Positions 16,376 to 33,178 of a stretch of 43,312 bases of DNA are shown here, piece by piece. The stretch lies in IMG/VR virus record IMGVR_UViG_2565956616_000006, positions 1 to 43,312 of that record, one strand, 5' to 3'. A program made the position numbers and the translations under genes. Position 1 is the stretch's first letter. Every line of letters starts with the position of its first letter. The stretch comes from a virus (Duplodnaviria; Heunggongvirae; Uroviricota; Caudoviricetes). The notes under the pieces were generated by a model. The model had not been told where the DNA came from and ran no database searches. It was given only the letters and a program-made list of their open reading frames with translations.

Positions 16376-16562
16376 CTCAATTAATACCCCTCGCCTTACG
16401 TCCGCACTTCAATTAATCGAGCAAGCAGCGGCTGTCCTGGTTGCTGTCAGTCTTTCGGCTGAAGAAATGGACGCTGCTGATGTCGTGGATGCGATTAAAG
16501 CGTGCTCATCTTTGGTTAACGATGCCCGTGCCGAGCTGGTAATTCTTGGGGGTGAAAAATGA
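16368..16562 (+). CDS. Small hypothetical protein
   Basis: ATG start MNNSINTPR within ORF 16311-16562. Confidence 0.4.
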   Translation: MNNSINTPRLTSALQLIEQAAAVLVAVSLSAEEMDAADVVDAIKACSSLVNDARAELVILGGEK

Positions 16563-16822
16563 ATATCAACTTAATTTATCGTCATCCGTGTGAGCTGGAA
16601 ATTGAATCATTGCTGGGGCGTGAAGAGCCATATCCAGACACATTCACTCCCGCAGATTGCGCGACTGAACGGCTTACCAGAGCGCGCACAGGTCTGGTTC
16701 ATGTGATGAATGAGATTGTTCCCTCGGTGGGAGGGGAACAGGCGACAGTAATCAATAGCTGGCTACAAAAAGTTACCTCCCTGATAGATATCGGTTTAAT
16801 CGATGTGGAGAGTGCGAAATGA
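16559..16822 (+). CDS. Hypothetical protein (87 aa)
   Basis: ORF with overlapping stop/start coupling to neighbours. Confidence 0.45.
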   Translation: MNINLIYRHPCELEIESLLGREEPYPDTFTPADCATERLTRARTGLVHVMNEIVPSVGGEQATVINSWLQKVTSLIDIGLIDVESAK

Positions 16823-17040
16823 CCAACATCCAGCTCATTGAAGCGCAATGTCGCATCGAACAGGTTCAGACTGTTTTAGGGTTCTGGCTTGAAGGGGCCA
16901 GCCCCAGCAACAGAGACAAGTTAATGATTGGCGCGGTTATGTCACTGCTTAATGGCGTACCAGAAGCTATTCAGGAAGCGGACGAATTGTTGGGCAAATA
17001 TGAGTTACAGAATCATTCAGGCGAGGCGAAACATGAATAA
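16819..17040 (+). CDS. Hypothetical protein (73 aa)
   Basis: ORF, translationally coupled. Confidence 0.45.
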   Translation: MTNIQLIEAQCRIEQVQTVLGFWLEGASPSNRDKLMIGAVMSLLNGVPEAIQEADELLGKYELQNHSGEAKHE

Positions 17041-17635
17041 TTTCTTAACTTTCCATGCAGAAGCAACGCCTGACGGCGTAAACATCATGTACCGCAGCAA
17101 CGATGGCATGACAGAACGCGTTGAGGCCATCTCATATATTGATGCCGTAAATCGTCTGGATGCCGGGGATTATGACGATAAACCAGATGAAGGTATGTCA
17201 ATACATCTCGCTATTGCCGATGGCGGCAACCAGGGATATTTCGATTACACATCACAGCATAACGTCATTATGTGGAGATGGCTGATCGCAACAGTATTCA
17301 TGCTGGAAATGAGAGAGGAAAACGGCACTGTCAGCATCATTGATGATACTGGCAATCCTTCCGAAGTGGCTGTTTATTCCAACGGCATCGTCGCCATGCC
17401 GCTGTATCCAGTAGCAGAGCGCCTCGCTATGGCAAACAACATTGAGGGCGCGATGATAGAACGTTTTGGCATCGAGTCTGGCACAGAACGCGCCATCATT
17501 TTCTACAGAGCCATGATGGATGTGGAACAAGGAGCACTGACTCCATTTGGTCGTGAAACGCTTGCTGAACTTCACAACAGCTTTATAGCTGAACTGAATG
17601 AAAACGGCATGCCAGCGGAACCAGTGACGCACTGA
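17033..17635 (+). CDS. Hypothetical protein (200 aa)
   Basis: ATG at 17033 (MNNFLTFHAEA) within ORF 16928-17635. Confidence 0.5.
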   Translation: MNNFLTFHAEATPDGVNIMYRSNDGMTERVEAISYIDAVNRLDAGDYDDKPDEGMSIHLAIADGGNQGYFDYTSQHNVIMWRWLIATVFMLEMREENGTVSIIDDTGNPSEVAVYSNGIVAMPLYPVAERLAMANNIEGAMIERFGIESGTERAIIFYRAMMDVEQGALTPFGRETLAELHNSFIAELNENGMPAEPVTH

Positions 17636-17645
17636 GGATGGAGCC

Positions 17646-17987
17646 ATGATTACTAAAAATTTCCGACTGAATGCGCTGGCAAATAAGTATGCGTCGGCAC
17701 TGTATAACCACATTACCTCCACCAGCGGCGGGGACTATTTCATGGTTGATGCGGACGGCGAGGCCGTCCGTGTGGAAATCGTCAATGGAGTAAAAGGCGT
17801 TCGCAGCCTGATCGATAGCTACACACTGGCAGCCATGAAAGTGTTCTACCCGCAGTGGGAAACCGTGGGGATCGAGCTTCTTGAACGTTGCGTCACTAAG
17901 GACGGATTGACTGACGTCGGGCGTGAGATATGGCAAAGCATGGTTAATGACATGGGCGCAACTGTAGCGGGAGGTTCTCATGCGTGA
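17646..17987 (+). CDS. Hypothetical protein (113 aa)
   Basis: ORF in co-directional small-gene cluster upstream of primase. Confidence 0.5.
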   Translation: MITKNFRLNALANKYASALYNHITSTSGGDYFMVDADGEAVRVEIVNGVKGVRSLIDSYTLAAMKVFYPQWETVGIELLERCVTKDGLTDVGREIWQSMVNDMGATVAGGSHA

Positions 17988-18351
17988 AAATGCAGAAATG
18001 GCGCTTAGCTCAGCAATCGGAGAGCAGGTGGCAAAGATTGCTGGTGCTGTGTGGATTCATAACCTTCATTCTACTGGTGAAGAGAAAATGGTAATTCAGA
18101 CGCCAGAGGGACGCACCATTACTACATCTCTGAAGCCGTCAGATGTTTGTGATCTGATTTGCGCATTCATGTACCCAGCAATGAGGACTGTCCACGGCGA
18201 TAAGTGGAAACTTGCGACAACCGCTGAATTTGATATGTGGCTAAACAATGATGGCATGCTGACTGATTACGGAATAACCAAGTGGCAGATGCTGGTTAGC
18301 CATATCGCAAACGCTATAGACCACGTGGGGTACGGTGATGCGAAACATTGA
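17980..18351 (+). CDS. Hypothetical protein (123 aa)
   Basis: ORF overlapping neighbours by a few nt. Confidence 0.5.
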   Translation: MRENAEMALSSAIGEQVAKIAGAVWIHNLHSTGEEKMVIQTPEGRTITTSLKPSDVCDLICAFMYPAMRTVHGDKWKLATTAEFDMWLNNDGMLTDYGITKWQMLVSHIANAIDHVGYGDAKH

Positions 18352-21094
18352 TCTTATCCGTCAGGTTATCAGTGCGTCTGAAAACAACTGGCCTCATGTG
18401 CTGGGCTGCCTGAACATAAATGTCCCTGACTCTCCGCGCCGTCATGCTCCCTGCCCTGCATGTGGGGGCAAAGATCGATTCCGGTTCGATGACAACGGGC
18501 GCGGTAGCTTCATCTGTAATCAGTGCGGCGCTGGTGATGGGCTGGATTTAATTAAACGCGTAAATAACTGCGACACAACAGAGGCGGCGCTTCTTGCCGC
18601 TGATGTTCTGGGTATTGATTACCGGACAACGGAAACACCAGAAGCCACCAGCCAGAAACGGGAACAACTGGAAACCGAGCGCCAGCGACGCGAACAGGAG
18701 CGCCTGAAAAGGGCAGAGAAGGACGAACAACAAAGACGGGATACGTTTTCCCGTCAGTTTGATGACATGCGCAGAAAGGCTGTAAACGGCAAATCTGATT
18801 ATCTGGTTGCGAAAGGGGTAGGTGATTTTACATTCCCCGTGTTGCCCGATGGATCTCTGTTGCTGGCGCTGGTGGATAAATCCGGCGCAGTAACAGCAGC
18901 ACAGACTATTACCTCACATGGTGAAAAAAGACTCCTGACAGGTTCAGCAAAGCGGGGGGCATATCACGCCATAAACGCACCAGAAACAACACAGAGCATC
19001 TTAATCGCAGAAGGTCTGGCAACGGCATTATCTGCCCATTTAATTCGTCCAGAGGCGCTGACAGTGGCGGCGATTGATGCCGGGAACCTGTTATATGTCG
19101 CCCAGGTACTGCGGGATAAATTTCCTTCAGCACAAATCATCATTGCTGCGGATAACGACCACAGCGAAGGAAGACAAAACACGGGGAGAATAGCAGCAGA
19201 AAAAGCAGCTTTATCTGTTTCTGGATGGGTGGCATTACCCCCGACAGATCACAAAGCAGACTGGAATGATTACCACCAAAAACACGGCATTAAATGCGCC
19301 ACAGAAGCGTTCAATAAGTCAATGTACCAACCACAGGGTAATGGCGTGAAACAGGAGCCACAGACCATTGAGGGAAGCGATTTTAAGGTTATGGATACCG
19401 ACCCACTGAAACCAAGAATAGAAAGCCGCGAGGATGGTATTTATTGGGTATCTCCGAGAGCTGACAGCCAGAGTGGAGAAATCATCAATAACGAAAGCTG
19501 GTTATGTTCTCCGTTAAGCGTTATCGGTACTGGCAGAGACGATAAAGACCAGTATCTCATTCTTCGCTGGCTGTCGTTTGGTTCTGAAACGCCGACAACC
19601 GCTGCCATTCCACTGGCTGATATTGGTGAACGTGAAGGATGGCGCACACTTAAAGCTGGTGGGGTAAATGTCACGACCAAAAGCAGCCTCAGAGCAATAC
19701 TGGCAGACTGGCTACAACGCAGTGGCTCTCGTGAATTGTGGCGTGTTGCTCATGCCACTGGCTGGCAATGCGGAGCGTACATCATGCCTGATGGGGAAAT
19801 CATCGGAACACCTGAAAATCCTGTGCTGTTCAGCGGGAGAAGCTCAGCCGCAGCCGGATATACCGTCTCAGGGAGCGCGAAAAGCTGGCGTGATAACGTG
19901 GCGCGTCTGGCCTTTGGTAACTATTCAATGATGACCGGGATCGGCGCAGCACTGGCAGCGCCATTGATTGGGCTGGTGGGCGCTGACGGGTTCGGCATTC
20001 ATTTCTATGAGCAGTCGAGCGCAGGTAAGACCACCACGGCAAACGTGGCGAGCAGCTTATACGGCAACCCTGATTTACTGCGGCTGACGTGGTACGGAAC
20101 CGCGCTGGGGCTGGCAAATGAGGCCGCCGCCCACAATGACGGACTAATGCCGCTTGATGAAGTTGGTCAGGGCGCTGATCCTGTCAGCGTTTCACAGTCT
20201 GCCTATGCGTTATTTAACGGTGTAGGGAAACTGCAAGGCGCTAAAGATGGTGGAAACCGGGATCTAAAACGCTGGCGTACAGTGGCAATCAGCACCGGAG
20301 AAATGGATTTAGAAACATTTATCGCTACTTCCGGGCGAAAAACCAAAGCCGGGCAACTGGTGCGACTGCTGAATATTCCGTTGAGTAAAGCAGTACGCTT
20401 TCACGATTACCAGAACGGAAAACAGCACGCAGACGCACTGAAAGACGCTTACCAGCATCACCACGGCGCGTCCGGGCGTGAGTGGATTAAATGGCTGGCA
20501 CACCACCAGCAACAGGCTATTAAAACCGTTCGTGATTGCGAAAGCAGATGGAGAAGCCTGATCCCATCCGATTATGGTGAGCAGGTTCACCGTGTAGCCG
20601 CGCGATTTGCCATTCTAGAGGCCGCATTGTTGTTAGGCGAGGTTGTAACAGGCTGGGATGCTCAGACATGCCGTGATGCGATACAGCACAGCTATAACGC
20701 ATGGTTGCGCGAGTTCGGCACAGGTAACAAAGAGCATCAGCAGATTATTGAACAAACGGAGGCATTTCTTAATGCCTATGGGCTTAGCCGTTTTGCACCA
20801 TTTCCATACAGCCCGGCAGATTTGCCCATCAAAGATTTAGCCGGATACCGTCAGCGTGGAGAACATGACGAAAGCCCAATGATTTTCTACACATTCCCGG
20901 CCACATTTGAAAAGGAGATCGCATGTGGTTTCAACGCAAAACAGTTTGCTGAAGTGTTGAAAAAAGCCGGGATGCTAACCCCACCAAACAGCGGTCGTGG
21001 ATACCAAAGAAAATCACCACGTATTCAGGGACGACAAATAAACGTTTATGTACTCAATTACCAGCCAGGAGATTATAACTCATCTGAAGAATGA
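18335..21094 (+). CDS. Primase-helicase (P4 alpha-like: zinc-ribbon + TOPRIM primase + P-loop helicase domain)
   Basis: 919 aa; CPACGGKDRFRFDD...CNQCG zinc-binding motif, TOPRIM-like ILIAEGLATA and IIIAADNDH, Walker A-like SSAGKTT; followed by iteron cluster. Confidence 0.85.
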   Translation: MMRNIDLIRQVISASENNWPHVLGCLNINVPDSPRRHAPCPACGGKDRFRFDDNGRGSFICNQCGAGDGLDLIKRVNNCDTTEAALLAADVLGIDYRTTETPEATSQKREQLETERQRREQERLKRAEKDEQQRRDTFSRQFDDMRRKAVNGKSDYLVAKGVGDFTFPVLPDGSLLLALVDKSGAVTAAQTITSHGEKRLLTGSAKRGAYHAINAPETTQSILIAEGLATALSAHLIRPEALTVAAIDAGNLLYVAQVLRDKFPSAQIIIAADNDHSEGRQNTGRIAAEKAALSVSGWVALPPTDHKADWNDYHQKHGIKCATEAFNKSMYQPQGNGVKQEPQTIEGSDFKVMDTDPLKPRIESREDGIYWVSPRADSQSGEIINNESWLCSPLSVIGTGRDDKDQYLILRWLSFGSETPTTAAIPLADIGEREGWRTLKAGGVNVTTKSSLRAILADWLQRSGSRELWRVAHATGWQCGAYIMPDGEIIGTPENPVLFSGRSSAAAGYTVSGSAKSWRDNVARLAFGNYSMMTGIGAALAAPLIGLVGADGFGIHFYEQSSAGKTTTANVASSLYGNPDLLRLTWYGTALGLANEAAAHNDGLMPLDEVGQGADPVSVSQSAYALFNGVGKLQGAKDGGNRDLKRWRTVAISTGEMDLETFIATSGRKTKAGQLVRLLNIPLSKAVRFHDYQNGKQHADALKDAYQHHHGASGREWIKWLAHHQQQAIKTVRDCESRWRSLIPSDYGEQVHRVAARFAILEAALLLGEVVTGWDAQTCRDAIQHSYNAWLREFGTGNKEHQQIIEQTEAFLNAYGLSRFAPFPYSPADLPIKDLAGYRQRGEHDESPMIFYTFPATFEKEIACGFNAKQFAEVLKKAGMLTPPNSGRGYQRKSPRIQGRQINVYVLNYQPGDYNSSEE

Positions 21095-21112
21095 GCTTCT
21101 TCATGTGCGTAG

Positions 21113-21233
21113 AAAAGGTGTTGGTTCAGTTGGTTCAGTTGGTTCAATTTGTAAAGTGTATTGTTTTATAAGGATTTTATTCTTTTTATTGAACCAACAC
21201 TGAACCAACAACACGGTATTTTGAACCAACACA
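21113..21233. repeat. ori-like iteron cluster 1: 3x TTGGTTCA(G) direct, AT-rich spacer, 3x TGAACCAAC inverted
   Basis: Seen directly, immediately downstream of primase-helicase stop. Confidence 0.7.
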
Positions 21234-21280
21234 ATGTGACTGAATTGATGCGCACAACACCTGGCTGGCATCAGAGAGTG

Positions 21281-21356
21281 TTTTACGAGACTTTCGTAAA
21301 ATCCTGTGTACAAGGGCGTGACGTTTTTGAAAGTGAGCACTACGAAATTTTCGTAG
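21281..21356. promoter_or_regulatory. Two related palindromes (TTTTACGA-gactt-TCGTAAAA and CTACGAAA-t-TTTCGTAG), candidate operators
   Basis: Perfect 8-bp-arm inverted repeats about 60 bp apart in a non-coding stretch. Confidence 0.4.
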
Positions 21357-21551
21357 TTCAAAAAACAGCCTCTGAGAAGTTGTTATGCCTGTTCAGCAAA
21401 CCATCCGCATAGCTGATCGCGAATCAAATTACCAATGGAGCCAGAAGCAAGGGCAGAACTGAAAAGCGCCTGCCGTGAAGAGTAATGCGACACCATAAAT
21501 ATAGTTTTTAGAGTCCATAAAAAACCTGTCAAAACCTGACACACAGAACGA

Positions 21552-21583
21552 TGCCACCAGCTACTGAGCGGTGGCATTTTTTT
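21552..21583 (+). terminator. Rho-independent terminator
   Basis: TGCCACC-11 nt loop-GGTGGCA stem followed by T7; closes a ~330-nt ORF-poor stretch downstream of ori 1. Confidence 0.65.
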
Positions 21584-21678
21584 GTGCTATTTGTTTCATA
21601 TTTTGCAATTACTATGATGAATATTGCGATTTGTGAAACTATAATAACTGTTGTTTTATACAGTTCTAAGGGGGCGTT

Positions 21679-21840
21679 ATGGCTATTTCAGTAAAGCCGG
21701 TATTGATAAGTGAGAAGCAAATGGAAGCGATAAAGAAAATTCAGGAAGAGCAGCGTAAAAAATCAGGAATTGGAGTAGCGCCAACTCTGCATGAAATTGC
21801 ACGAGGGTTAATAGATAAGGCGCTGGCAGGCTGTATGTGA
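21679..21840 (+). CDS. Small hypothetical protein (53 aa), first gene of cargo operon
   Basis: ATG with AAGGGGGCG RBS; below the 60-aa cutoff of the ORF track; translated by hand (MAISVKPVLISEKQMEAIKK...). Confidence 0.4.
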   Translation: MAISVKPVLISEKQMEAIKKIQEEQRKKSGIGVAPTLHEIARGLIDKALAGCM

Positions 21841-21856
21841 AAATGGATGGCATCGC

Positions 21857-22318
21857 ATGGAACTAAAATTTATTGATAACCCTGTGCGATTACAGGCCTT
21901 TCTTAACGAGCCAGGCAATACCGAAAATATTGTTGAGCCGGGGCACACGTACTACATCAAGCCTGATGCGGTATATCTCGGCATCTACGAAGGATTGGTG
22001 CTGGCTGGCGTTCATGAAGTGCGTAACTTCTGGCATAGCATTGTTGAATGCCATGCGGTGTACGACCCCGGATTCCGTGGTGAATATGCACTGCAAGGGC
22101 ATCGATTATTCTGCAAATGGCTTCTCGAAAACTCACCATTCCTTAACAGCATTACCATGGTTCCTGACACCACCAAATACGGACGGGCAATTATCCGTTT
22201 GCTTGGCGCTACCCGTGTTGGTCACCTTGATGATGCTTATATCAGATGTGGTAAACCCGTCGGCGTAACGCTTTATCAGTTAACTCGGCAACAATATAAG
22301 GAATTCAGCGAATGTTAA
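21857..22318 (+). CDS. gp14-like protein, island copy (153 aa)
   Basis: Weak but colinear similarity to the prophage gp14 at 2699-3154 (e.g. FDCHAMYLPEVRG vs VECHAVYDPGFRG; VTFYSATREE vs VTLYQLTRQQ); same size; precedes gp7-like gene. Confidence 0.55.
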   Translation: MELKFIDNPVRLQAFLNEPGNTENIVEPGHTYYIKPDAVYLGIYEGLVLAGVHEVRNFWHSIVECHAVYDPGFRGEYALQGHRLFCKWLLENSPFLNSITMVPDTTKYGRAIIRLLGATRVGHLDDAYIRCGKPVGVTLYQLTRQQYKEFSEC

Positions 22319-22989
22319 TTACCCACATAGCTCATAAACATCTCAATCGTGCCGTATACGAAAAAGGCGGTGATGGTGGTGCCTCTAAAGCTCAGGCGAA
22401 GGCCCAGCAGCAGGCAATTGATTTGCAGCGCGAGCAGTGGAATACGGTGATGAATAATCTCAAGCCGTATGCAGAAGTCGGATTGCCTGCTTTACAACAA
22501 CTACAAGGACTGATGACTCTGGAAGGGCAGAATAAAGCCGCGAATGATTTCTTTGGTTCTGGTTTATATAAAACACAGGCAGATCAGGCCCGTTATCAGA
22601 ACCTTGTCTCAGCAGAAGCTACCGGGGGGCTTGGCTCAACAGCTACCAGTAACCAGTTATCTTCCATTGCGCCCATGCTTTATAACAATTGGCTTAGTGG
22701 GCAAATGCAAAATTATGGAAACCTGCTAAATGTCGGGATGAATGCGGCATCAGGGCAGGCAACAGCAGGGCAAAACTACGCCAATAATACCGGGCAACTC
22801 TTGCAGGGGCTTGGCGCTATTCGTGCAGGTCAGGCGCAGCAGCCATCCAGTCTTGCGCGTGGTATTGGTGGGGCGGCATCAGGCGCTTTAGCGGGTGCGC
22901 AACTTGGTTCCGTTGTTCCGGGTATAGGTAATGTCGCCGGGGCTATTGGTGGTGGGCTTATTGGTCTTGTTGGGGGGCTTGGATTCTAA
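22312..22989 (+). CDS. Ejection protein gp7-like, island copy (225 aa)
   Basis: Clear similarity to prophage gp7 at 3157-3852 (NT.MNNLKP..., ARYQ.L..AEATGGLGSTATSNQL..IAP...WLSGQM.NY.NL, Gly-rich C-terminus). Confidence 0.75.
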   Translation: MLITHIAHKHLNRAVYEKGGDGGASKAQAKAQQQAIDLQREQWNTVMNNLKPYAEVGLPALQQLQGLMTLEGQNKAANDFFGSGLYKTQADQARYQNLVSAEATGGLGSTATSNQLSSIAPMLYNNWLSGQMQNYGNLLNVGMNAASGQATAGQNYANNTGQLLQGLGAIRAGQAQQPSSLARGIGGAASGALAGAQLGSVVPGIGNVAGAIGGGLIGLVGGLGF

Positions 22990-24410
22990 TGGCGACATGG
23001 CAACTTGGCGGGCTGCCTAGCATGGCACCGCAAAATGATAATGCTCCTCGTTCTTCCGTTCCTCAGCCTGTGCAGTATCAGCAGCAGCCAAACGTAGGTT
23101 TAATGGCGCTACAGGGGCTAAGAGGCGTTGCTGAGATTAATCAGCAGGCACGTCAACAACAGCGTAAAGCAGAGTTTCAGAAAGCATATGCCGGGGCTTT
23201 TGAGTCTGGAGACAGAAACAAAATGCGCAGTCTTATTTCTGAGTATCCAGAAGAATTTGAAAGCGTTCAGAAAGGGATGGGCTTTATTGATGACGACCAG
23301 AGAAATTCTATTGGTCATCTTGCGACTAGTGCTCAAATCGCATCTTCGCTCGGAACTGGGGCATTTGGAAAATTCATAGCAGATAACGAAGATGAAATGC
23401 GTCGCTTGGGAATTTCTCCTGAGTCTGTTGCCGAAATGCATGTTAATGATCCACAGGGATTCCAGCGGCTTGCTGGTAGTATGGCACTGTTTTCTCTCGG
23501 TCATGAGAAGTATTTCGATATCAAAGATCAAATGGAAGGTCGGGATATTGAGCGTGGCAAGTTGGCAGAAACAATCCGCAGCAATCAGGCTGGCGAAGCA
23601 CTTCAGGCGAGAGGGCAGGATATTAGCCGAGCAAATGCGTTAACGTCAGCATATGCACCAACAGCAGCAATGCAGAATTACAATCAGTACGCTCAAATGT
23701 TAAAGGAGGATCCAGAGGGGGCGGCGGCATTTGCGGCAGCGGCTGGAATTAATACAAACGCCAAAAAATTAATGAGTGTTAGAGAAAACGATGATGGCAC
23801 TGTCACAAAATACTACACAGACGGAAGTGAAGAGCAGGGAAAACTAAACCAGCCAATATCTGGAGATGGGTTTCGTCCAATAGCTTTGCCAACAGCCCAA
23901 AAGATCATGGAAAAGTCGCCAGAAGGGGCTAAAAAAGCTGCTGGATTTGCATACAGGGTTAGGGATGCTCTTGATTCAATAGATACACTGAAAGACCAGC
24001 TTAGCCCACAGCGAGTGGCGATCATTAATAATGCTTTGGGTAATGGGACGCTGGCTAACTTAACGCTCAGCCCAACAGAGCAGCAATACGTTGTTAATGC
24101 TAATGACGCAATAATGGCAATACTCCGTCAGGAAACAGGGGCAGCTATCGTACCTGCTGAAATGTCAAAATATTATCAAATGTATTTCCCTCAGCCTGGC
24201 GACTCCACAAAAACCATTGATACCAAGCGCCGGAAGATGGAAAACCAGTTCAATTCGCTGAAAGCTGCTTCTGGTCGAGCTTATGATGCTTTGCGGGTTA
24301 TTTCAGCAGTTGACAGAGGAACTTCTTCTTCGTCGCAGACATTGCCGCAATCTGAGCAGGTATCACAGCCAGCAGCCAGCAGTAACTTTTCTTCACTATG
24401 GGGTGATTAA
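22989..24410 (+). CDS. Ejection protein gp20-like, island copy (473 aa)
   Basis: Starts MATWQ like prophage gp20; shared block [22 protein letters not shown]; similar length. Confidence 0.75.
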   Translation: MATWQLGGLPSMAPQNDNAPRSSVPQPVQYQQQPNVGLMALQGLRGVAEINQQARQQQRKAEFQKAYAGAFESGDRNKMRSLISEYPEEFESVQKGMGFIDDDQRNSIGHLATSAQIASSLGTGAFGKFIADNEDEMRRLGISPESVAEMHVNDPQGFQRLAGSMALFSLGHEKYFDIKDQMEGRDIERGKLAETIRSNQAGEALQARGQDISRANALTSAYAPTAAMQNYNQYAQMLKEDPEGAAAFAAAAGINTNAKKLMSVRENDDGTVTKYYTDGSEEQGKLNQPISGDGFRPIALPTAQKIMEKSPEGAKKAAGFAYRVRDALDSIDTLKDQLSPQRVAIINNALGNGTLANLTLSPTEQQYVVNANDAIMAILRQETGAAIVPAEMSKYYQMYFPQPGDSTKTIDTKRRKMENQFNSLKAASGRAYDALRVISAVDRGTSSSSQTLPQSEQVSQPAASSNFSSLWGD

Positions 24411-26515
24411 TGGCTAAAGCATGGAAAGATGTTATCGCCTCTCCACAGTATCAGGCGTTAGCACCAGAACAAAAAGCGCAGGCTCAGGAGCAATACTTCA
24501 ATGAAGTCGTTGCCCCGCAAGCCGGAGAAAGTGTAGAGCAGGCTAAGCAGGCTTTTTATGCTGCCTATCCACTACCATCAACGAATGAAATAGACCGAGC
24601 CCAATCAGCAACTCAAAATATTCAACATACATCATCTGATAATTCTCTTGCGTCAGGGTATGCAAAGTTAGCTACTCAGCAAAGAGAGGGGCTTGAGCGT
24701 TCAGCAGAACAGGGAGCCAGCCTTGGGGCTGCGATGCGCGATGCTATAACAGGCGAAAGCCGAATGACTCCAGAGATGGAGAGACTGCAAAATGTCGACC
24801 TTGCCCCAGAGTTAACCTCACTCAGCATGGATGCTCTAAAAGCTCGATGGTCTCAACTTTTCGGCTCTGACGCATCTCAGGAAAAGATTCTTCAGAGCAT
24901 GGGAGCGAAATTAAGGCAGGATGAGAAGGGTAACACTATCGTTTCCCTGCCATCCGGTGATTATGCTCTGAACAAGCCGGGTTTATCGCCGCAAGACGTG
25001 GCATCGTTTCTGGCTAATGCGCTGGCGTTTACACCAGCGGGCAGGGCCGGAACGGTGCTGGGGGCCATAGGGAAATCAGCAGCTACAGATTTAGCACTAC
25101 AGGGAGCCACCAGCCTCGCTGGTGGAGAAGATATTGATCCGTTACAAACGGTAATTTCTGCTGGCATTGGTGGTATTGGTAAGGGGCTGGAAAATACAGC
25201 GAGTGCGGTTTCGAGGGCTGTTCGTGGTGATATGTCGCCTGAAGCAAAGGCTGCTGTCGACTTTGCATCGGAAAGAAATCTGCCGTTAATGACCAGTGAC
25301 ATGCTGAAAGATAAAACCTTTATGCAGAGTCAGGCTCAGACATTAGGCGAAAGAGTTCCTTTTTTTGGAACCGGTAAGAATCGGCTGAATCAACAACAAG
25401 CACGAGAAAATTTAGTCAGAACATTTAGCGATGGTCTGGGTGGCATTTCTGATAAACAGCTTTATGAATCTGCGACTAAAGGGCAACAAAAATTCATTGA
25501 GGCAGCAGGAAAGCGATATAACCGCATAATTGACGCTATGGGGGATACCCCTGTCGATCTCTCAAACACGGTAAAAGCTATCGACAATCAGATTGCTGTG
25601 TTAAGCCGCCCGGGTAAATCTCAGGATAGAGCCGCGGTAAAAGTCTTGCAGCAATTTAAAGACGATATCACCAGCGGACCAAATGACCTGCGTCTGGCGA
25701 GGGAAAACAGAACCGATCTTCGAAAGCGGTTTATGGCGTCATCTGACACTGTTGATAAAGATACGCTCCAGAAAGCCAGCGATATTATCTACAAGGCATA
25801 TACGGCGGATATGAAAAAAGCCGTAGCCAAAAATCTTGGAGCAGACGAAGCCATTAATATGGCAAGGGTTGATCGCTCATGGTCTAAATTCAATGACATG
25901 ATGGGAAGAACGCGCGTTCAAAAGGCAATAGCCAGCGGCAAGGCCACGCCTGAGGATGTAACAAAACTCGTTTTTAGCCAAAGCCCATCAGAACGTTCTC
26001 AGCTTTACAGGCTTCTGGATGACAATGGTAGGCAAAACGCACGAGCAGCCATAGTTCAGAATGCTGTAGATAAGGCGACTGATCCGTCTGGAAATATCAG
26101 TGTTGAGAAGTTTATTAATGCGTTACACCGGAACAGGAAGCAATCAGCAACTTTCTTTAAAGGCGTACATGGAAAGGAACTGGACGGCGTTATTAAATAC
26201 CTCAACGATACAAGACACGCGGCAAAAGCGAACGTTCAAAACTTAAATGGTCAGCAGCTTTATGGATTGTTAGTTGGTGGTGGCATCATAAACGCAGCAG
26301 TATTAGCGGGGATGCTAAAAACGGCTGCGTTTGTTGTTCCTGCTGCTGGTGCCGTAGGCGGAGCCGCGAAGGCATACGAAAGCCCTGTTATACGAAATGC
26401 CTTGTTACGTTTGGCAAATACGCCAAAAGGTAGCACAGCATATGACAGAGCGATCAGTACGGTCACACAATCGCTCACCAGAGTCGCACAGGCATCACAA
26501 AAAGAAGCTCAATAA
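24410..26515 (+). CDS. Ejection protein gp16-like, island copy (701 aa)
   Basis: Colinear similarity to prophage gp16 (AVAKNLGA...; C-terminal [16 protein letters not shown]); position after gp20-like. Confidence 0.7.
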   Translation: MAKAWKDVIASPQYQALAPEQKAQAQEQYFNEVVAPQAGESVEQAKQAFYAAYPLPSTNEIDRAQSATQNIQHTSSDNSLASGYAKLATQQREGLERSAEQGASLGAAMRDAITGESRMTPEMERLQNVDLAPELTSLSMDALKARWSQLFGSDASQEKILQSMGAKLRQDEKGNTIVSLPSGDYALNKPGLSPQDVASFLANALAFTPAGRAGTVLGAIGKSAATDLALQGATSLAGGEDIDPLQTVISAGIGGIGKGLENTASAVSRAVRGDMSPEAKAAVDFASERNLPLMTSDMLKDKTFMQSQAQTLGERVPFFGTGKNRLNQQQARENLVRTFSDGLGGISDKQLYESATKGQQKFIEAAGKRYNRIIDAMGDTPVDLSNTVKAIDNQIAVLSRPGKSQDRAAVKVLQQFKDDITSGPNDLRLARENRTDLRKRFMASSDTVDKDTLQKASDIIYKAYTADMKKAVAKNLGADEAINMARVDRSWSKFNDMMGRTRVQKAIASGKATPEDVTKLVFSQSPSERSQLYRLLDDNGRQNARAAIVQNAVDKATDPSGNISVEKFINALHRNRKQSATFFKGVHGKELDGVIKYLNDTRHAAKANVQNLNGQQLYGLLVGGGIINAAVLAGMLKTAAFVVPAAGAVGGAAKAYESPVIRNALLRLANTPKGSTAYDRAISTVTQSLTRVAQASQKEAQ

Positions 26516-26533
26516 CTGGTAGCCATGGATGGC

Positions 26534-27148
26534 TTAGATATCTCTGCTGTCTCCATTAGGAAATAAAAGATAATATGGATTTGCCTTTCTTGCTCTCCTT
26601 GCTTCACCTGGATACCTGTTAGTCAGTAGTTTGCATAATGAGCAGAGAACAACACTCAAGAAAATTCCGAATGAGAAGATCAATATCTCACCAAAAATCA
26701 ATGGCGATATTAAATTTTCAGGATTTAATGATAAGTCAATGTTAAAAACATATTGAGCAATACCAGTAAGTATCAATAATATAATCCCTATGGAATACAT
26801 TGCTGTTTCCCAAACATCAGACAGTCTATTTTTGAATTGTTCGCTGGAGTAGTAGTTTGTTATAAAGTCAGAAAAATCACTCTCATATGCATCATCTTTA
26901 GGTGATGTTAGAAATCCTCTGTCTCTCCATACCTTCTCCCAATTAGTCGATTCTTTTTTTAAGGAAAAATAAATATGTATTGCCAAAAGGATAGCCAAAA
27001 TTGGTGTTAGCTCTAAAAAATAGAATGTTATGGAATAAATAATACTGCCATGTTCAAACTCATCTGGGACTATCATGTATGCACAAAAATAAATTGAAAA
27101 GTACACCATGCAGATAGTTAGCAATTCTTTAGTATCTTTTCTGCTCAC
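26534..27148 (-). CDS. Low-GC integral membrane protein (about 4 TM helices), candidate exclusion/abortive-infection factor
   Basis: 204 aa, hydrophobic segments, AT-rich codon usage unlike neighbours; convergent with gp16-like gene, in the position where P22 carries sieA. Confidence 0.5.
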   Translation of the reverse strand: MSRKDTKELLTICMVYFSIYFCAYMIVPDEFEHGSIIYSITFYFLELTPILAILLAIHIYFSLKKESTNWEKVWRDRGFLTSPKDDAYESDFSDFITNYYSSEQFKNRLSDVWETAMYSIGIILLILTGIAQYVFNIDLSLNPENLISPLIFGEILIFSFGIFLSVVLCSLCKLLTNRYPGEARRARKANPYYLLFPNGDSRDI

Positions 27149-28017
27149 ACCAACCCCCTTTAGCGTTGTTTAGAATGGCAATCATCATATATCCAAGACA
27201 TGGCATTTGGTACATAGCTTGGGTCGGGATTTCAAATCCGATCCCCGTTGATGGGGCCGTTACAGTACGCGCATATCCGCTTTATGTGAAACAGGAAGAT
27301 TTTTCTGATATCACTGCCACAGCAAAACACCAATTTCGTGACCAGTACGCGCGCGAGGGGTATCAGTTGCAAAAATTTTGCAACTACGTCCGACCAGTAC
27401 GCACACGATGGCGGGGGATACCATGAAACTGTTCTCTACACGAGACAGAGTGGTGGTGATGTGTTGATTATCGGCGTATATGCGCACAGGACGCGCTATG
27501 ACGATGTTTTATGCGGGTACACCAATCACATGTATCTGATGTGATAAATCGTGTTACATGACATCTCATGTTGTGCTGGTGGTTATCACGACGTTCTGAA
27601 TCTGGCCTTTGCCTGATATTTTGCGACAAGTACGCGCGCGTAGCATCGAAATTATCGGATGGCGTATGCTGCTGGCAATATGAAGACCGATAGTATTAAC
27701 CGAAAAGCGATTAAGGAGTGCCAACTTTTCAGTAGAGAAACTAGCCAGCATAGGAAAATGTAGAAATTACCCAATTAATAGGTAAAAGTTATTGACACAG
27801 CCTGTAGTGGATAACGATATGAATAAAAACCACATATAGTGGTTTTTCGTGAGTGATGATAGTATCTATGTTAGTTTCCTAAGTAACTGTGCATTGACAT
27901 GTGGATAACTTCGGATAGAGTTACAGGCAACCGAGCCCGATCCTCTGTTTCTCCGCCGCCGATTTCAGGCATGTGAGTTTCACGGTCGGGCCTTTTATTA
28001 TCTTTTGTTTCGCCACT

Positions 28018-28995
28018 ATGATTGCCGCAAAGCCTCATAAGGACTATCACGAATTGCTAGGATTGCTACTTGAACGTGGCATGATTATCAATGATCGAAA
28101 TCGTGCGATACGTAAGCTGTCGCAGGTTGGATATTATCGATTGTCAGGTTTTTGGTACCCATCAAGAATTATTGCGACAACAGATAAAGGTCTTTCGTAC
28201 AGAACAGACCGATTTCTTGCTGGTACCAGTTTCGAGAAGACGTACGATCTATATCTTTTTGACAAAAAACTGCGTCTTTTGATGATTGATGCTATCGAAA
28301 GAATAGAGATTCATGTTCGTTCAGTCATCGCGCATGAGGTTGGTCGCAATGATCCACTTGCCTACATGTCATCAAAATACATTAATCCAAAATTCTCATC
28401 TGCCTTCGAGCATTGGGTGTATAAGCAAAAAGTAAAATTAGACGAAAGCAGAGATGACTGTATTGAATGGCATCGAAGCCAAGGCAAGGAGATTCCATTT
28501 TGGGTGGCGGTGGAGACCTGGGATTTTGGTCAGATGTCTAAATATTATGCGATGCTTAATGGTCATATGCAGGGGAAAATTATACGTCGTTTTGGCATTG
28601 ATAATAAGCAGACATTTGCAAAATGGTTGAAGTGCCTTAATCTCATAAGGAATCGTTGCGCTCACCATTCCAGAATATGGAATAGAAAGCATCCCCGAGT
28701 TCCAGTACCGGATAATGAATACTTTGACGGACTTAATCTCCATCCAGAGAGTTGCGAGAGGATTTTTAGCGCGATCTGTATTATCTGGTACTTAGTTAAA
28801 CGACTTGGTCCGGGATCAACATGGCTTCGGCAAATTGCAGACCTTATTGACTCTAAACCAAATGTTCCCGGATGTGGATATGATTCAATGGGTTTACCTG
28901 CTAAAGGATTCCCACGAGAGAGATTCTCTCAGGACTTAGGTTTTGTTATCGCCGACAACGACCCTGTAGCTGAAGGGCGGAAAGGGAGCGATTGA
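28018..28995 (+). CDS. Abortive infection protein, Abi_2 (AbiD/AbiF-like) family
   Basis: N-terminal motif KPHKDYHELLGLLLERGMIIND...VGYYRLSGFWYP typical of AbiD/AbiF-like proteins; ORF track start 27973 is GTG, ATG at 28018 preferred. Confidence 0.65.
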   Translation: MIAAKPHKDYHELLGLLLERGMIINDRNRAIRKLSQVGYYRLSGFWYPSRIIATTDKGLSYRTDRFLAGTSFEKTYDLYLFDKKLRLLMIDAIERIEIHVRSVIAHEVGRNDPLAYMSSKYINPKFSSAFEHWVYKQKVKLDESRDDCIEWHRSQGKEIPFWVAVETWDFGQMSKYYAMLNGHMQGKIIRRFGIDNKQTFAKWLKCLNLIRNRCAHHSRIWNRKHPRVPVPDNEYFDGLNLHPESCERIFSAICIIWYLVKRLGPGSTWLRQIADLIDSKPNVPGCGYDSMGLPAKGFPRERFSQDLGFVIADNDPVAEGRKGSD

Positions 28996-29024
28996 GCGAT
29001 AAATATCATTTATACACTGATCAA

Positions 29025-29453
29025 TTACTGAAGCAGCGTATTGATTCTTTTAATATTGTTACCCTGACGCTTCCACGCGCTGTAAATGTCTTTATCCCAC
29101 GCTTTACCAGCTTTTGTTTGGTAGCCTGCTTCATTGAGCCGTTCCGCTATCACACGCCCATTATCAAATCCCTGTCGGATGGTATCGGCAATGATCTTTA
29201 TAACTGCCGTTTCGTTATATGGCTTTGGTGGGATGTTCGGCTTTCCGGCAATAAGCGACGCAGCGGCTTTTTCCATGCGCTCCACCAGCCCAAGCATTCG
29301 TGAATCAATAGACTTTTCCGGCTGTCCCAGCTTCATGCGAATCGCATCAACAAGCCAGGAGGTTTTATCCCCTCCAGAAGCGAGAACAGACCGATTAAAC
29401 TCATCCTGCAATTCAGATGGGATGCGGAACGCGACCAGATTAGATTTGCTCAT
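29025..29453 (-). CDS. Putative transcriptional regulator with ribbon-helix-helix N-terminus
   Basis: MSKSNLVAFRIPSELQDEFNRSVLASGGDKTSWLVDAIRMKL resembles Arc/CopG-type RHH; start taken at internal ATG 29453. Confidence 0.45.
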   Translation of the reverse strand: MSKSNLVAFRIPSELQDEFNRSVLASGGDKTSWLVDAIRMKLGQPEKSIDSRMLGLVERMEKAAASLIAGKPNIPPKPYNETAVIKIIADTIRQGFDNGRVIAERLNEAGYQTKAGKAWDKDIYSAWKRQGNNIKRINTLLQ

Positions 29454-29562
29454 TGCAAAGACCATATCAGTGAGTAATATCCATACAGTATACCACTGTA
29501 TAACACTGTTATACGCTCAAATATCAGCCAGAAAATAACGGACCAATCACAAAGCTATCGCT

Positions 29563-29696
29563 GTGTTGTTGGTTCAGAGCTGGGCTGTGTTGGTTCAAAA
29601 TGAGTTGATGTTGGTTCAATATTTCAGAAAAAACACAATAAAAACAACGATCTTTACAAATTGAACCAACTGAACCAACTGAACCAACACCTTTTT
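29563..29696. repeat. ori-like iteron cluster 2, inverted copy of cluster 1
   Basis: Reverse complement of 29652-29695 is identical to 21113-21156 (44 bp); same TTGGTTCA/TGAACCAAC content in mirrored order. Confidence 0.7.
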
Positions 29697-29724
29697 GCTT
29701 ATCTATATAATCTGAGAGGCAGAA

Positions 29725-30012
29725 ATGATAAGGGACAGGAAAGCTGAAGAACTGGAGTCAAAAGGGCTATACCGGAGAGCTGCCGCACGATGGGCAGAAG
29801 TCATGATGCTGGCAGATGGCGATAAAGAACGTGAACATGCAGCAAACAGACGCTCTGAATGTATCCGTAAGGCGGCACGCCCACCAGCAACTACAGACAG
29901 ATTCGGAGATTTAAGACAGGCAGTTAAGCGGACTCATTCGGCTCTTGGTATGGATGAGGAAGCGAGAGGGTATTTCAGGCGTTATCGCGATAAAGATTGC
30001 CAGAGACAGTAA
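29725..30012 (+). CDS. PerC-family-like transcriptional activator (95 aa)
   Basis: N-terminus MIRDRKAEELESKGLYRRAAARW resembles PerC-like proteins (from memory). Confidence 0.45.
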   Translation: MIRDRKAEELESKGLYRRAAARWAEVMMLADGDKEREHAANRRSECIRKAARPPATTDRFGDLRQAVKRTHSALGMDEEARGYFRRYRDKDCQRQ

Positions 30013-30354
30013 TGCTCTCTCTGTTTTGGCAAATTACCCCTCACTTTGAAGGGATCGGAGCTATAAAAATGGTGTTATCCGGCTTCCTGCATTGCAGGTT
30101 TTCGAAAGAATCAATGGGTTAGGTTATCGTGCAAATTTGCACTCTGCCAGCCAACGCAATTTCTCGTTGGCGGAAATATCAGGTATTTACTGAACGAACG
30201 GTCTACCCGCCTGTTCAACTACCAGTTGTACATGGCTGCTTTATGTGCAAATGGTGGTGAGAGAAAATTGTTTGGGGGTACTTTTGGGGGTATCTCCAAA
30301 GATGTAACTGGAAAATGTCTTTATATATCAATGTATTTTTATTGTTTGTTTTGT

Positions 30355-30372
30355 TCCTATTATCGGCACCAT
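30355..30372 (+). repeat. att direct repeat copy B (TCCTATTATCGGCACCAT)
   Basis: Exact 18-nt copy of the tRNA 3' core. Confidence 0.8.
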
Positions 30373-30975
30373 CAAGAAAATCAATAACTTAGCTTAACTT
30401 CTCTAAGAAATTGTATCTTCTGTTATCACTTACAAACGCCTATACGTTGTTATGGGCTTTGGTAGTGTAACACGTATGGGCGAGTAGTTCCCAGGCTCAA
30501 CCTCGTAACAAGTTCCTTTGAAGCTGGAAGACGTGCCACCGTCTCTAAACCTTCTACCAAAACTCTTAGCAAGATGTTCCACACCTGGCGCGGTGTCCAA
30601 TGATGCCACACGTCGTGAGACGTTGCAGAGGATAAACAGGCTAAATGATGGGAAGAGTTTTAAGTGCAATAGTGGATTAAAGCCCACCTCTTCAAAACCT
30701 AACTTGATCGGGAAAGAATCAAGCTCTAGCACGGTTTCGTCCACCGGAGTACAACGGGTGCCTGATAAGAGAAGAACTGCTAAGACTTCATAGCTTTTGT
30801 GAAAAAGCCCTTTTAGTGGATACGCCTACGGCGCTTATTTTTTGGTATAACCATCAAAGGCGCTTTATGGCTCCTATTGTCTTGAAAATGTATCTTTACT
30901 TGTATTGTGTTTTATGCGTAGTCTCCCTGTGTAGTATGTAACTTGTTAATTTTCATATGAATACAGAGGCACACG

Positions 30976-31134
30976 ATGAAAAACATTGCAGCTATCAAAC
31001 GTAATAACCGCAAGATTCACGCTCGTAAGTTCCTGTCTACGCCAGAAGGAAAAGCCTGGCTAGAGCGTAAACAGAGAGAGAACGAAGAAAGAAAACTCCT
31101 TAGTGAGTTGAAATGGCTTAGAGAGGATTTCTGA
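30976..31134 (+). CDS. Small basic hypothetical protein (52 aa)
   Basis: ATG with GAGG RBS; hand translation MKNIAAIKRNNRKIHARKFLSTPEGKAWLERKQRENEERKLLSELKWLREDF. Confidence 0.3.
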   Translation: MKNIAAIKRNNRKIHARKFLSTPEGKAWLERKQRENEERKLLSELKWLREDF

Positions 31135-31299
31135 AAATCTCCAGAACGCAACAGGGCGCATTCTAACGCTGTTTTCATTGCTCGGTATAGGGATGTATAG
31201 GTGATGTGTGTTTAATGCGTCTGTGAGCTTGTTTTATGTCTTATTTTGCATTTTCATAATGCAGGAGAGAACACGGAAAGCCTTAAAATTAATTATTGG

Positions 31300-31340
31300 G
31301 GTATTTAAGGCTATTTTTAGGGTATTTAAGGGTATTAAAC
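31300..31340. repeat. Direct repeats of GGTATTTAAGG (2 full + 1 partial), followed by phased TAAATA A-tracts to about 31460
   Basis: Seen directly; AT-rich, ORF-free. Confidence 0.5.
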
Positions 31341-31478
31341 TTGATTTAATTGATTAAAATATAAACAGATAATTATGTATCTTATTGATTTATAAGGTTA
31401 TTTTTAAATAAAGGTAAATAAAAAATAAATAGCCATAAATAGCTATAAATACATCTAAATACCTATATCCCTTCCCTT

Positions 31479-31886
31479 ATGGCTAGATTGCGAGAGGTGC
31501 TTAACGCGATTTTTAGCGCCCCCCGATCTGGAAAATCCAGAATCCCCAAATATCAGCAAGGAATTTTCTTGCGTAATCAACATCGTTTTTACCTATTAAA
31601 TCATTACACAGAAAGCCTTTCTGTAATGTCTCTCACTAAACTTTCACTAAACACGAGAATGATCGGTTTTATGTCGGATCAGATGCTAGAAACAGCACCA
31701 CGTCTCACAAGGGCTGTAAGCGATGAAACCAGTGTTTATGCGGGTGCAGGTCAAAATATAGGCCAAAGTCCATTTAACATAATAAACGTAATATGCACTA
31801 AGGAACACATAGAACGCCTTGAGTTGATGTATAAGGGGAAAAGTGGTGGATTTTTTTACGTAGGAGCACGAGAGGGCTTCTATTGA
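31479..31886 (+). CDS. Hypothetical protein (135 aa; real start may be internal)
   Basis: ORF in AT-rich region, no clear RBS. Confidence 0.3.
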   Translation: MARLREVLNAIFSAPRSGKSRIPKYQQGIFLRNQHRFYLLNHYTESLSVMSLTKLSLNTRMIGFMSDQMLETAPRLTRAVSDETSVYAGAGQNIGQSPFNIINVICTKEHIERLELMYKGKSGGFFYVGAREGFY

Positions 31887-32266
31887 CTTTTGTATGCTAT
31901 GAAATATAATAGAAGGTTTTTATTTTTATGTTGATAGTGATTGCACATTAAAGATTGAAAGCAAATTTAAACATAAATTTTCAACACGTGAAAGAACTTG
32001 TTCGACAAATGATAGAACGTTTATTGAGCAACAATTTTGCAGTGATGCGCTATATGCCGCATAACATAAGGCTTTGCTGATGATGACGCAAAAGTGAAGA
32101 AAGCTAACATTGCACTTTTTAAGCTACTTTTCATTGGATTTTTACGTAGGAATTACACAGGGATTAATCATCAATTACATTGAATTTAAGCCTGTTTTAG
32201 ATGTTTAATTTTGGTAGCAAGAAACACTTTTAGAAGATCATTGCACAGATGTTATGTGATAAATGG

Positions 32267-32426
32267 ATGTAACGATGGGTTACATTCAGCTATCTGAAAT
32301 ACTCTCTGTAAGAAATTTGGTAGTAACGATTCGTTACATAGACTAATTATTGAATGTAACGATATTACACATCGGTAGTAACGATTCGTTACATCGGCAG
32401 ATGATTGGTTGTAACGAAAGGTTACA
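32267..32426. promoter_or_regulatory. Array of five palindromic sites, consensus (T)GTAAC-N5-GTTAC(A), spaced about 56, 32, 22 and 33 bp
   Basis: Sites at about 32267, 32323, 32355, 32377 and 32410; two copies are identical (GTAACGATTCGTTAC). Confidence 0.55.
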
Positions 32427-33149: not shown

Positions 33150-33178
33150 TTGACAAAAGCTTTTAGTTATGGTAAAGT
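33150..33178 (+). promoter_or_regulatory. Sigma70-type promoter (TTGACA-17 bp-TAAAGT)
   Basis: Consensus -35 at 33150-33155, 17-bp spacer, -10 at 33173-33178, upstream of the island-2 small-gene cluster. Confidence 0.5.

Follow-up and report, generated by a model that had tools for sequence, protein, structure and literature searches.

A P22-type ejection-protein cassette carried by a satellite island of the EcCIMP1 family in Escherichia coli

The closest described relative of the element reported here is EcCIMP1, a 19,963-bp phage-inducible chromosomal island (PICI) that E. coli MP1 carries at tRNA-Thr (Pick, Stadel & Raivio, ISME J 2025; PMC11773190). Excision and circularisation of EcCIMP1 were observed only when the P22-like phage Kapi1 (vB_EcoP_Kapi1) was present and induced, the island needed its own int and alpA, and Kapi1 transduced it at low frequency, approximately 5 × 10³ transductants per ml (PMC11773190). 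The titres of Kapi1 after induction were not lowered by the island and infection of non-lysogens was unaffected; the island did add to superinfection immunity in Kapi1 lysogens, by an unexplained mechanism, and not in non-lysogens carrying it, and the island yielded no known defence system (PMC11773190). The same authors regarded its 'DNA transfer/DUF2824-like' genes as packaging candidates, stated that no phage structural genes were found, and proposed an 'insurance policy' logic for its alpA_1, which can replace the Kapi1 excisionase (PMC11773190). The window analysed here, a stretch of 43,312 nucleotides (positions 1 to 43,312 of IMG/VR record IMGVR_UViG_2565956616_000006), contains an island of 18.5 kb, island 1 (11834-30371), which is judged from its sequence to be a member of the EcCIMP1 family of PICIs, parasites of P22-like phages. 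Island 1 carries at 21679-26515 a cassette of homologues of P22 genes 14, 7, 20 and 16, which we favour reading as a DNA-delivery module of the satellite.

In P22, gp7, gp20 and gp16 are the ejection proteins (E-proteins), and their exchangeability has been studied by Leavitt et al. (mBio 2024, PMC10883804). Foreign E-proteins were found to assemble into P22 virions and gp7 was interchangeable, in contrast to gp16 and gp20, which functioned only as a matched pair; particles with a mismatched gp16 or gp20 assembled and were non-infectious, with titres below 10⁴ compared to 5 × 10¹⁰ (PMC10883804). The exclusion protein SieA targets gp20/gp16, and one natural E-protein set, that of HK620, escapes it (PMC10883804).

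The cassette was found to consist of a 53-aa leader open reading frame (ORF) followed by four colinear genes on the plus strand. The first, at 21857-22318, encoded a homologue of P22 gp14 (Pfam DUF2824, 2e-61, 206.7 bits against a cut-off of 25), and the second, at 22312-22989, a homologue of the ejection protein gp7 (Pfam P22_gp7, 2e-72, 244.3 bits against a cut-off of 28). The third, at 22989-24410, encoded a homologue of the ejection protein gp20 (Pfam Inj_translocase, 6e-58, 196.6 bits against a cut-off of 29.7; PHROG 917 over the full length). The fourth, at 24410-26515, encoded a 701-aa homologue of the ejection protein gp16, here called type A, which matched PHROG 770 'DNA transfer protein' (2e-161, residues 19-700) and gave no match in Pfam. 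A preliminary description of this stretch, made from the letters alone, had proposed four ORFs homologous to gp14, gp7, gp20 and gp16, colinear with and diverged from the block at 2699-7116 of the adjacent P22-like prophage, and BLASTP-type comparison, Pfam and PHROG bore this out. Compared to the prophage copies, identity was 23% for gp14 (1e-8), 53% for gp7 (2e-51), 41% for gp20 over the N-terminal 234 residues only (6e-48), and 30% for gp16 across approximately 450 C-terminal residues (7e-48). The gp16-like protein had been described as about 90 aa longer than its prophage counterpart; the difference was 88 aa (701 versus 613 aa), though a length of approximately 700 aa is normal in some P22-like phages, and the island protein aligned over its full length with gp16 of Sf6, ST64T and L.

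The four proteins had their relatives in several phages. The gp14 homologue was 83% identical to that of Kapi1, the gp20 homologue 53% identical over its full length to that of APSE phage P33, and the gp16 homologue 67% identical to that of phage N7, and window gene 16 shared about 93% nucleotide identity with its counterpart in a P22-like prophage of strain SF-468, which is complete. The gene 16 of that prophage (L003 15272-17285) is of the island's type and is frameshifted. Detectable DNA similarity between the island block and the adjacent prophage block was limited to 86 bp and 61 bp, which ruled out a recent duplication. The island block had been taken for a second copy of the prophage block; homology and colinearity stood, and the near absence of shared DNA indicates that the island copy is a different allelic type and not a recent duplicate. 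In a PHROG scan of the island, gp26 was not found upstream of the cassette, nor were mnt, arc, ant or the tailspike gene found downstream of it. Taken at the level of sequence, the cassette is an intact P22-type ejection-protein set, homologous to genes 14/7/20/16.

Island 1 and EcCIMP1 were 97.9% identical in nucleotide sequence over 11.3 kb (window 11805-23149), a stretch that runs from the att (attachment) site and takes in the first 160 nt of gene 20. Both occupy thrW with the same att core, their integrases are 99.5% identical, the order alpA, antA, ash, primase, origin and leader is the same, and gp14 and gp7 are 99-100% identical. In contrast, gp20 of the window diverges from codon ~55 onwards and is 33% identical overall, and the gp16 of EcCIMP1 is a 906-aa protein with a lytic-transglycosylase domain that is 22% identical to the 701-aa type A protein. 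The window island further differs in having another gene in the slot of sieA and AbiD, and in lacking alpA_1. Helper dependence has thus been shown experimentally for an element that shares 97.9% identity over the integrase-to-origin region. The only DNA that island 1 and EcCIMP1 had in common with Kapi1 was that of gene 14 and of the beginning of gene 7 (81%); the comparison showed neither a terS nor a pac-like segment, and a pac site or other helper-shared DNA was rejected on this basis.

Islands of this family were not confined to thrW. Between yicC and dinD, islands with the same backbone and another integrase carried the same leader and E-protein genes after the primase gene, and islands of Serratia and of the Citrobacter type likewise had leader and cassette behind the primase gene, which marks the cassette as an integral and not an accidental part of the family. 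DNA comprising the leader and the stretch upstream of it (21540-21860) was found in 499 of 5,426 complete E. coli genomes, so that the family is present in about 9% of them. Two architectures were observed, leader-14-7-20-16 and leader-20-16 only, each accounting for about half of the E. coli matches as judged by identity band and three sampled loci. The minimal version is exactly the gp20 and gp16 pair. Among the E. coli islands the primase and AntA were 97-99.9% identical, and so were gp14 and gp7 among the four-gene islands. On these near-identical backbones three types of gp16 were found, of 701 aa, 705 aa and 906 aa (the last with the lytic-transglycosylase domain), mutually 22-26% identical, and the C-terminal half of gp20 always co-varied with the gp16 type. 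A fourth pairing, with an N7-like gp16 of 665 aa, was present in IMG/VR loci. The pair is therefore swapped as a unit, in line with the published genetics of gp16 and gp20. The island set was of a type different from that of the partner phage in both cases examined: between EcCIMP1 and Kapi1, gp20 was 26% and gp16 24% identical, and between the window island and the adjacent prophage the values were those given above, with gp20 alignable in its N-terminal half only.

All examined island copies were intact except one with an insertion sequence (IS). Comparison of two E. coli islands gave a ratio of nonsynonymous to synonymous substitution rates (dN/dS) of 0.125 in gp16 and of 0.24-0.31 in gp20. 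All four genes gave 0.06-0.10 when EcCIMP1 was compared with islands of the Citrobacter type, the primases being only 67% identical. These findings show that the cassette is under strong purifying selection (dN/dS 0.06-0.13). The island gp7 was 74-85% identical across distant (Citrobacter-type) islands compared to 44-58% with any examined phage gp7, forming a satellite-specific clade, a pattern that in sequence terms suggests long residence in satellites.

The leader gene (21679-21840, plus strand) was specific to the satellite family. Twenty-four residues were invariant in 11 homologues, its position was always between the primase region and the virion-protein cargo, and no tblastn match to it was obtained in 50,697 phage records. 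Its AlphaFold model showed an extended N-terminus followed by two helices (predicted local distance difference test score, pLDDT, 75). It could be guessed to be a ribbon-helix-helix regulator, a guess with no Pfam or PHROG match and no Foldseek match in the PDB behind it.

Upstream of the leader, the order 3' of the primase gene was found to be the iterons, a terminator-like hairpin with a T run (21542-21586, plus strand), and an AT-rich stretch with a conserved -10 element TATAAT (21640-21645), followed two bases on by the LexA-box-like CTGTTGTTTTATACAG (21648-21663, plus strand). The hairpin parts the replication module from the cassette operon and lies in the same place in several genera; the other two elements are a putative promoter and a putative operator. 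The CTGTTGTTTTATACAG site is a perfect CTGT-N8-ACAG 16-bp core, of which the window contained 2 compared to 0.42 expected. A search with the full 20-bp LexA consensus, allowing up to 3 mismatches, gave no match, the site having six mismatches. The -10 element and its flanking motifs could be aligned across Escherichia, Citrobacter, Serratia, Klebsiella, Pectobacterium and Pantoea, and the exact box occurred in Serratia, Citrobacter and Pantoea and in 13 of the 14 loci from IMG/VR whose cargo is of the P22 type. From this arrangement we infer that the cassette operon is under SOS control in this branch. Such control would time expression to helper induction and would thereby argue for action during virion assembly. 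A further motif, AGTTTTnnGAGTCCATAAAAAA, occurred at 15627-15648 (inside ash), 21346-21367 and 21503-21524, the latter two between the origin and the cassette terminator, and a similar GAGTCCATAAAAA pair was observed upstream of the leader in the Citrobacter-type island; the AGTTTTnnGAGTCCATAAAAAA motif may be a regulator binding site.

When the leader was used as a probe in a genome scan and an IMG/VR scan, its cargo was found to vary beyond the P22 type. The IMG/VR scan gave 42 loci, 41 of them with enough downstream sequence. In the genome scan, the leader of Pectobacterium zantedeschiae lay 6.5 kb past a primase 73% identical to that of the window and was followed by homologues of epsilon15 gp15, gp16 and gp17 (49%, 57% and 75% identity, respectively). 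In epsilon15 these genes come after two small 'internal virion protein' genes (gp13, gp14), and the annotation given to gp17 is that of a virion structural protein. In Pantoea coffeiphila the leader preceded a 108-aa ORF and a full-length tape-measure protein of 1,188 aa, 76% identical to that of a Klebsiella siphophage. The Klebsiella cargo had two forms, one with a 605-aa protein akin to tape-measure/'tail injection transglycosylase' families and a small-terminase-like (TerS-like) protein, the other with a baseplate-hub-like protein and TerS-like genes. Among the IMG/VR loci, P22-type E genes were found in 14, epsilon15-type triads in 4, more distant podovirus internal-virion-protein triads in 4, tape-measure/transglycosylase proteins of about 610 aa in 5, sets of tape-measure, phrog_817 and baseplate-hub proteins in 7, and sets of a hub-like and a 238-aa protein in 7. 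The satellite backbone (int, AlpA, AntA, Ash, primase and single-stranded DNA-binding protein, SSB) was present wherever upstream sequence existed, and no match to a P22-like or epsilon15 portal, capsid or large terminase was found in the leader loci. What the cargo types would appear to have in common is that the proteins are released from the virion or located at the tip of the tail, where they open the envelope and conduct DNA, a generalisation based on PHROG names and on BLAST against a small reference set. That EcCIMP1-like islands are widespread satellites of Enterobacterales whose leader-headed operon of DNA-delivery proteins is exchanged to match the helper morphotype, giving them control over the entry step instead of over assembly or packaging, by a strategy not yet described that could for example carry them past entry exclusion in lysogenic recipients, is put forward tentatively, at somewhat short of an even chance.

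Two observations on these loci are recorded beside the survey. In the P. zantedeschiae island (L012 4953-7548), the gap between primase and leader held minus-strand genes for a QueC-like protein and a protein with a nucleoside 2-deoxyribosyltransferase domain, which, located as they are, are consistent with the described PICI pri-adjacent defence hot spot. The epsilon15 gp13 gene (L024 11122-11586), annotated as an internal virion protein and giving a GNAT-like HHpred match, lies upstream of gp15-17; this like relative position hints that gp13 is equivalent in role to P22 gene 14 (DUF2824; window 21857-22318).

The window itself is E. coli chromosome downstream of thrW, where three elements were found inserted one behind the other: first a P22-like prophage, next the EcCIMP1-like island, and then a third element. 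Positions 1 to ~11800 are the right end of the prophage, with gp4, gp10, gp26, gp14 (2699-3154), gp7 (3157-3852), gp20 (3863-5278), gp16 (5275-7116), mnt/arc/ant and the tailspike (9635-11440). In the sieA slot of this prophage, after gene 16, lies a convergent gene (7141-7530, minus strand), the product of which is a secreted or membrane protein and had no match to anything. The window contains the 17-bp core TCCTATTATCGGCACCA, the 3' end of the tRNA-Thr gene thrW, three times (11834, 30355 and 42759). Island 1 is bounded by thrW-derived att cores at both ends, attL at 11834-11850 and attR at 30355-30371, the latter doubling as the left att core of the next element. ARAGORN found no tRNA in the window because each junction holds 3' fragments of thrW only. 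In strain MB49, island 1 was present alone between thrW and the paoD side, without the prophage and without the second element, at 99.97% identity; the homology starts at 11805, within thrW, and the alignment skips from 30384 to 42751.

The integrase gene of island 1 lay at 12016-13230 (plus strand) and encoded a tyrosine integrase with Arm-DNA-bind_3, Phage_int_M and Phage_integrase domains in Pfam. It was followed by genes for an AlpA-type regulator/excisionase (13659-13862, plus strand; PHROG 66/2790), an AntA/AntB-type antirepressor (14306-15139, plus strand; PHROG 5817, 2e-37) kept in every examined island of the family, an Ash-family protein (15308-16375, plus strand; Pfam Phage_ASH, 3e-30), and a primase-helicase with zinc ribbon, TOPRIM and DUF927 (18338-21094, plus strand; Pfam and the MB49 annotation). 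A putative replication origin with three iterons GTTGGTTCA and three inverted copies TGAACCAAC was found at 21118-21232. Directly 3' of the primase gene is the usual position of the origin in PICIs. Small ORFs also belong to the backbone. In EcCIMP1 the gene at the AlpA position is required for excision and transfer (PMC11773190). Downstream of the cassette, a gene for a multi-pass membrane protein (26534-27148, minus strand) occupied the slot that sieA has in P22-like phages and was convergent with gene 16; Kapi1 and N7 have small genes in this same orientation behind their gene 16. Its only match was a weak one to 'SieA-like' in PHROG (4e-4), with none in Pfam or PADLOC, so that identity with SieA is not claimed. 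The accessory genes comprised an AbiD/Abi_2 abortive-infection gene (28018-28995, plus strand; PADLOC AbiD 8e-58, PHROG 2158) and a gene for a PerC-family regulator (29725-30012, plus strand; PHROG 994 and the MB49 annotation), the EcCIMP1 homologue of which acts as a repressor of LEE, the locus of enterocyte effacement (PMC11773190).

As the preliminary description had it, the island has an int-alpA-primase/iteron backbone without capsid, portal or terminase genes. Neither Pfam nor PHROG gave capsid, portal, terminase, tail or lysis genes among the island proteins, nor a match to P4-like psu, delta, sid or epsilon, and the set of a capsid-forming PICI (own capsid, portal, protease and terminase) was not found in the island. 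By the criteria for Gram-negative-type PICIs, which reportedly go back to Fillol-Salom et al. in 2018, island 1 is a discrete att-flanked element of between 10 and 20 kb with the integrase at one end, alpA after the integrase, and a primase gene with an adjacent origin. The rule that such islands carry no phage structural or lysis genes fails on the letter, gp7, gp20 and gp16 being virion proteins, and the low-confidence 'Type C' rating of EcCIMP1 by a SatelliteFinder-type approach results from this breach.

The second element (30355-42775), of 12.4 kb and low GC content (about 36-44%), lies in tandem at the same 17-bp att core. It has a gene resembling replication initiators (33670-34407), a weak match to a major head protein (37284-38315), genes for a tape-measure-like protein (38698-40539) and a phrog_817 protein (40587-41255), and, on the minus strand, an integrase gene (41337-42701). 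Some cargos of leader-type satellites (L062) likewise have a member of the phrog_817 family 3' of the gene for the tape-measure protein. The second element, too, may be a satellite that encodes entry proteins of its own.

We consider it probable, at roughly 0.55, that the cassette works as an ejection module, its proteins being incorporated into particles made by the helper and serving DNA delivery. The operon would be turned on at helper prophage induction by SOS de-repression, possibly together with an AlpA cascade, and the island E-proteins would co-assemble into helper-made procapsids. Upon infection they would then build the trans-envelope conduit for the packaged DNA, so that the satellite would bring its own DNA-delivery module of a type unlike that of its helper. 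The most likely benefit would be entry into recipients that block helper-type conduits, for example lysogens expressing a SieA-like protein, which are the cells that hold a future helper; independence from helper prophages with damaged E genes may be a secondary benefit. Several points weigh against this proposal. In the island of strain UTME-12 (L027 7318-11882), gene 20 is split by IS3 and gene 16 is truncated, which is decay, and part of the low dN/dS could have accrued in unsampled phages before capture. In the Pectobacterium and Klebsiella-like branches the LexA-like box falls short by one base or is degenerate. A change of type gives no guarantee of escape because SieA types A and B blocked 4 of 5 tested E-protein sets (PMC10883804), and an optimised delivery module is not evident for EcCIMP1 and Kapi1 because their transfer is very inefficient (~5 × 10³ transductants per ml). 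Lastly, the pri-adjacent region of PICIs is a known defence-gene hot spot (PMC11364771), which fits a defensive reading equally well.

Such a defence could act on assembly, heterotypic gp20 and gp16 (with gp7) entering the virions made by a P22-like phage, whether induced or invading, and rendering them non-infectious, which would protect the population or favour the satellite over its helper. The non-infectious P22 particles obtained with mismatched gp16/gp20 (PMC10883804) are what such a mechanism would produce, the island set is of a type unlike that of the partner phage, the gp20 N-terminal half conserved between types could permit mixed oligomers, and assembly-acting defences are hosted in the PICI pri-adjacent region (Tai; PMC11364771). 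However, EcCIMP1 left Kapi1 titres and the infection of non-lysogens unaffected (PMC11773190), a result that likewise disfavours the role as decoys poisoning helper virions suggested in the preliminary description. Moreover, a matched gp20 and gp16 pair is always kept, which a conduit needs and a poison would not, and PADLOC models gave no match to the cassette proteins, AbiD elsewhere being the sole match in the island. We regard interference with assembly as unlikely. Exclusion in the lysogenic state, in which E-proteins made at low level, or the membrane protein at 26534-27148, would block conduit assembly by an incoming phage and protect the host, has only a slim chance of being correct. 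It would speak to the boost that EcCIMP1 gives to superinfection immunity against Kapi1, an island without a known defence system, and in the window island the sieA slot is taken by a membrane protein with its weak SieA-like match; but the effect of EcCIMP1 was limited to Kapi1 lysogens and was not seen in island-bearing non-lysogens (PMC11773190), the LexA-box-like operator predicts repression in unstressed cells, and the membrane protein was not conserved across the family. To make an exclusion factor from four large virion proteins under strong constraint would also be costly.

It is quite improbable that the cassette serves mainly as insurance, complementing helper prophages with damaged or absent ejection genes in the manner of EcCIMP1 alpA_1. 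The frameshifted gene 16 of the same type in the SF-468 prophage shows the kind of helper it would rescue, the logic is that proposed by the EcCIMP1 authors for alpA_1 (PMC11773190), and E-proteins act independently of the remaining virion type (PMC10883804). The proposal nevertheless leaves unexplained the repeated swapping of types on identical backbones and the heterotypy to intact co-resident phages, and prophages decay in many genes while the satellite would complement the entry module only. That the cassette is a non-functional leftover of a degraded P22-like prophage at thrW, fused to a satellite backbone, has next to no probability. thrW is the attachment site of P22 and is used by P22-like phages, one of which is integrated beside the island, and a P22-like late operon ends in the same way, with the order 14-7-20-16 and then a convergent gene where sieA would be. 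The cassette nevertheless lies within an att-bounded element, the like of which, EcCIMP1, excises as a circle (PMC11773190), and it is preceded by a satellite-specific leader and promoter; its four ORFs are intact with dN/dS of 0.06-0.13, and the flanking P22 genes (gp26 on one side, mnt/arc/ant and tailspike on the other) were not found. The case of a contiguous degraded P22-like prophage, which the preliminary description had named as contrary to its view, was checked and excluded by the att boundaries, by selection, and by the same arrangement with a second integrase at yicC/dinD and in Serratia and Citrobacter-type islands.

The delivery reading bears on how satellites are understood. Known satellite strategies are derepression, capsid resizing, packaging redirection and tail theft; a family that carries injection proteins would make the entry step a further battleground for satellites, helpers and host defences. 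The family offers a natural system for the study of gp20/gp16 pairing, of SieA sensitivity and of the re-equipping of transducing particles, and its cassette could account for the low transfer of EcCIMP1 by Kapi1 and for the helper-specific superinfection effect. A rule of 'no structural genes' in satellite finding misses or downgrades a common family. The preliminary description knew of no described satellite with ejection proteins. This has been overtaken as far as the element kind and the presence of the genes are concerned, since both were published in 2025 with EcCIMP1, in a paper that treated the genes as possible packaging genes; the reading of them as an ejection-protein set is absent from that paper. 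In a search of the literature for satellites with ejection, DNA-transfer or tape-measure proteins, which left most subscription-journal papers uncovered, the EcCIMP1 paper was the only relevant one, and within this searchable literature the identification of gp14/7/20/16, the unit-wise swapping of gp20/gp16, the two-gene form, the selection data, the putative SOS operator and the cross-genus pattern of 'entry-module' cargo were not found.

Compared to known systems, the island genes are of the same families as the assembly gene 14 and the E-protein genes 7, 20 and 16 of Lederbergvirus, with the same order and overlaps, and show the same mosaic as P22-like phages, a conserved N-terminal half of gp20 with a variable C-terminal half and gp16. 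In contrast to those phages, they stand in a satellite without capsid, portal, terminase or tail genes, and behind a satellite leader, terminator, promoter and LexA-box-like site instead of within a late operon. Operon I of the Staphylococcus aureus pathogenicity islands (SaPIs), which Ubeda et al. are said to have described (Mol Microbiol, 2007) as a LexA-controlled packaging/morphogenesis operon, is likewise a satellite operon 3' of the replication module that acts on helper virion production under apparent direct SOS control. The SaPI operon encodes a small terminase and capsid-size factors, whereas the island encodes ejection proteins and its control by LexA is presumed from the operator-like sequence. 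Capsid-forming PICIs (cf-PICIs), which reportedly produce capsids along with packaging proteins while their tails are stolen (Alqurainy et al., Cell Host Microbe, 2023), are similar in that the satellite encodes part of the virion and the helper gives the rest; they differ in that leader-type satellites encode only DNA-delivering proteins that leave the virion, and no capsid or packaging proteins. The Tai defences (PMC11364771) share with the cassette the pri-downstream neighbourhood and a link to virion tail or needle function, but they are small inhibitors unrelated to virion proteins, whereas the island genes are full-length homologues of virion components, kept as a matched set that looks functional.

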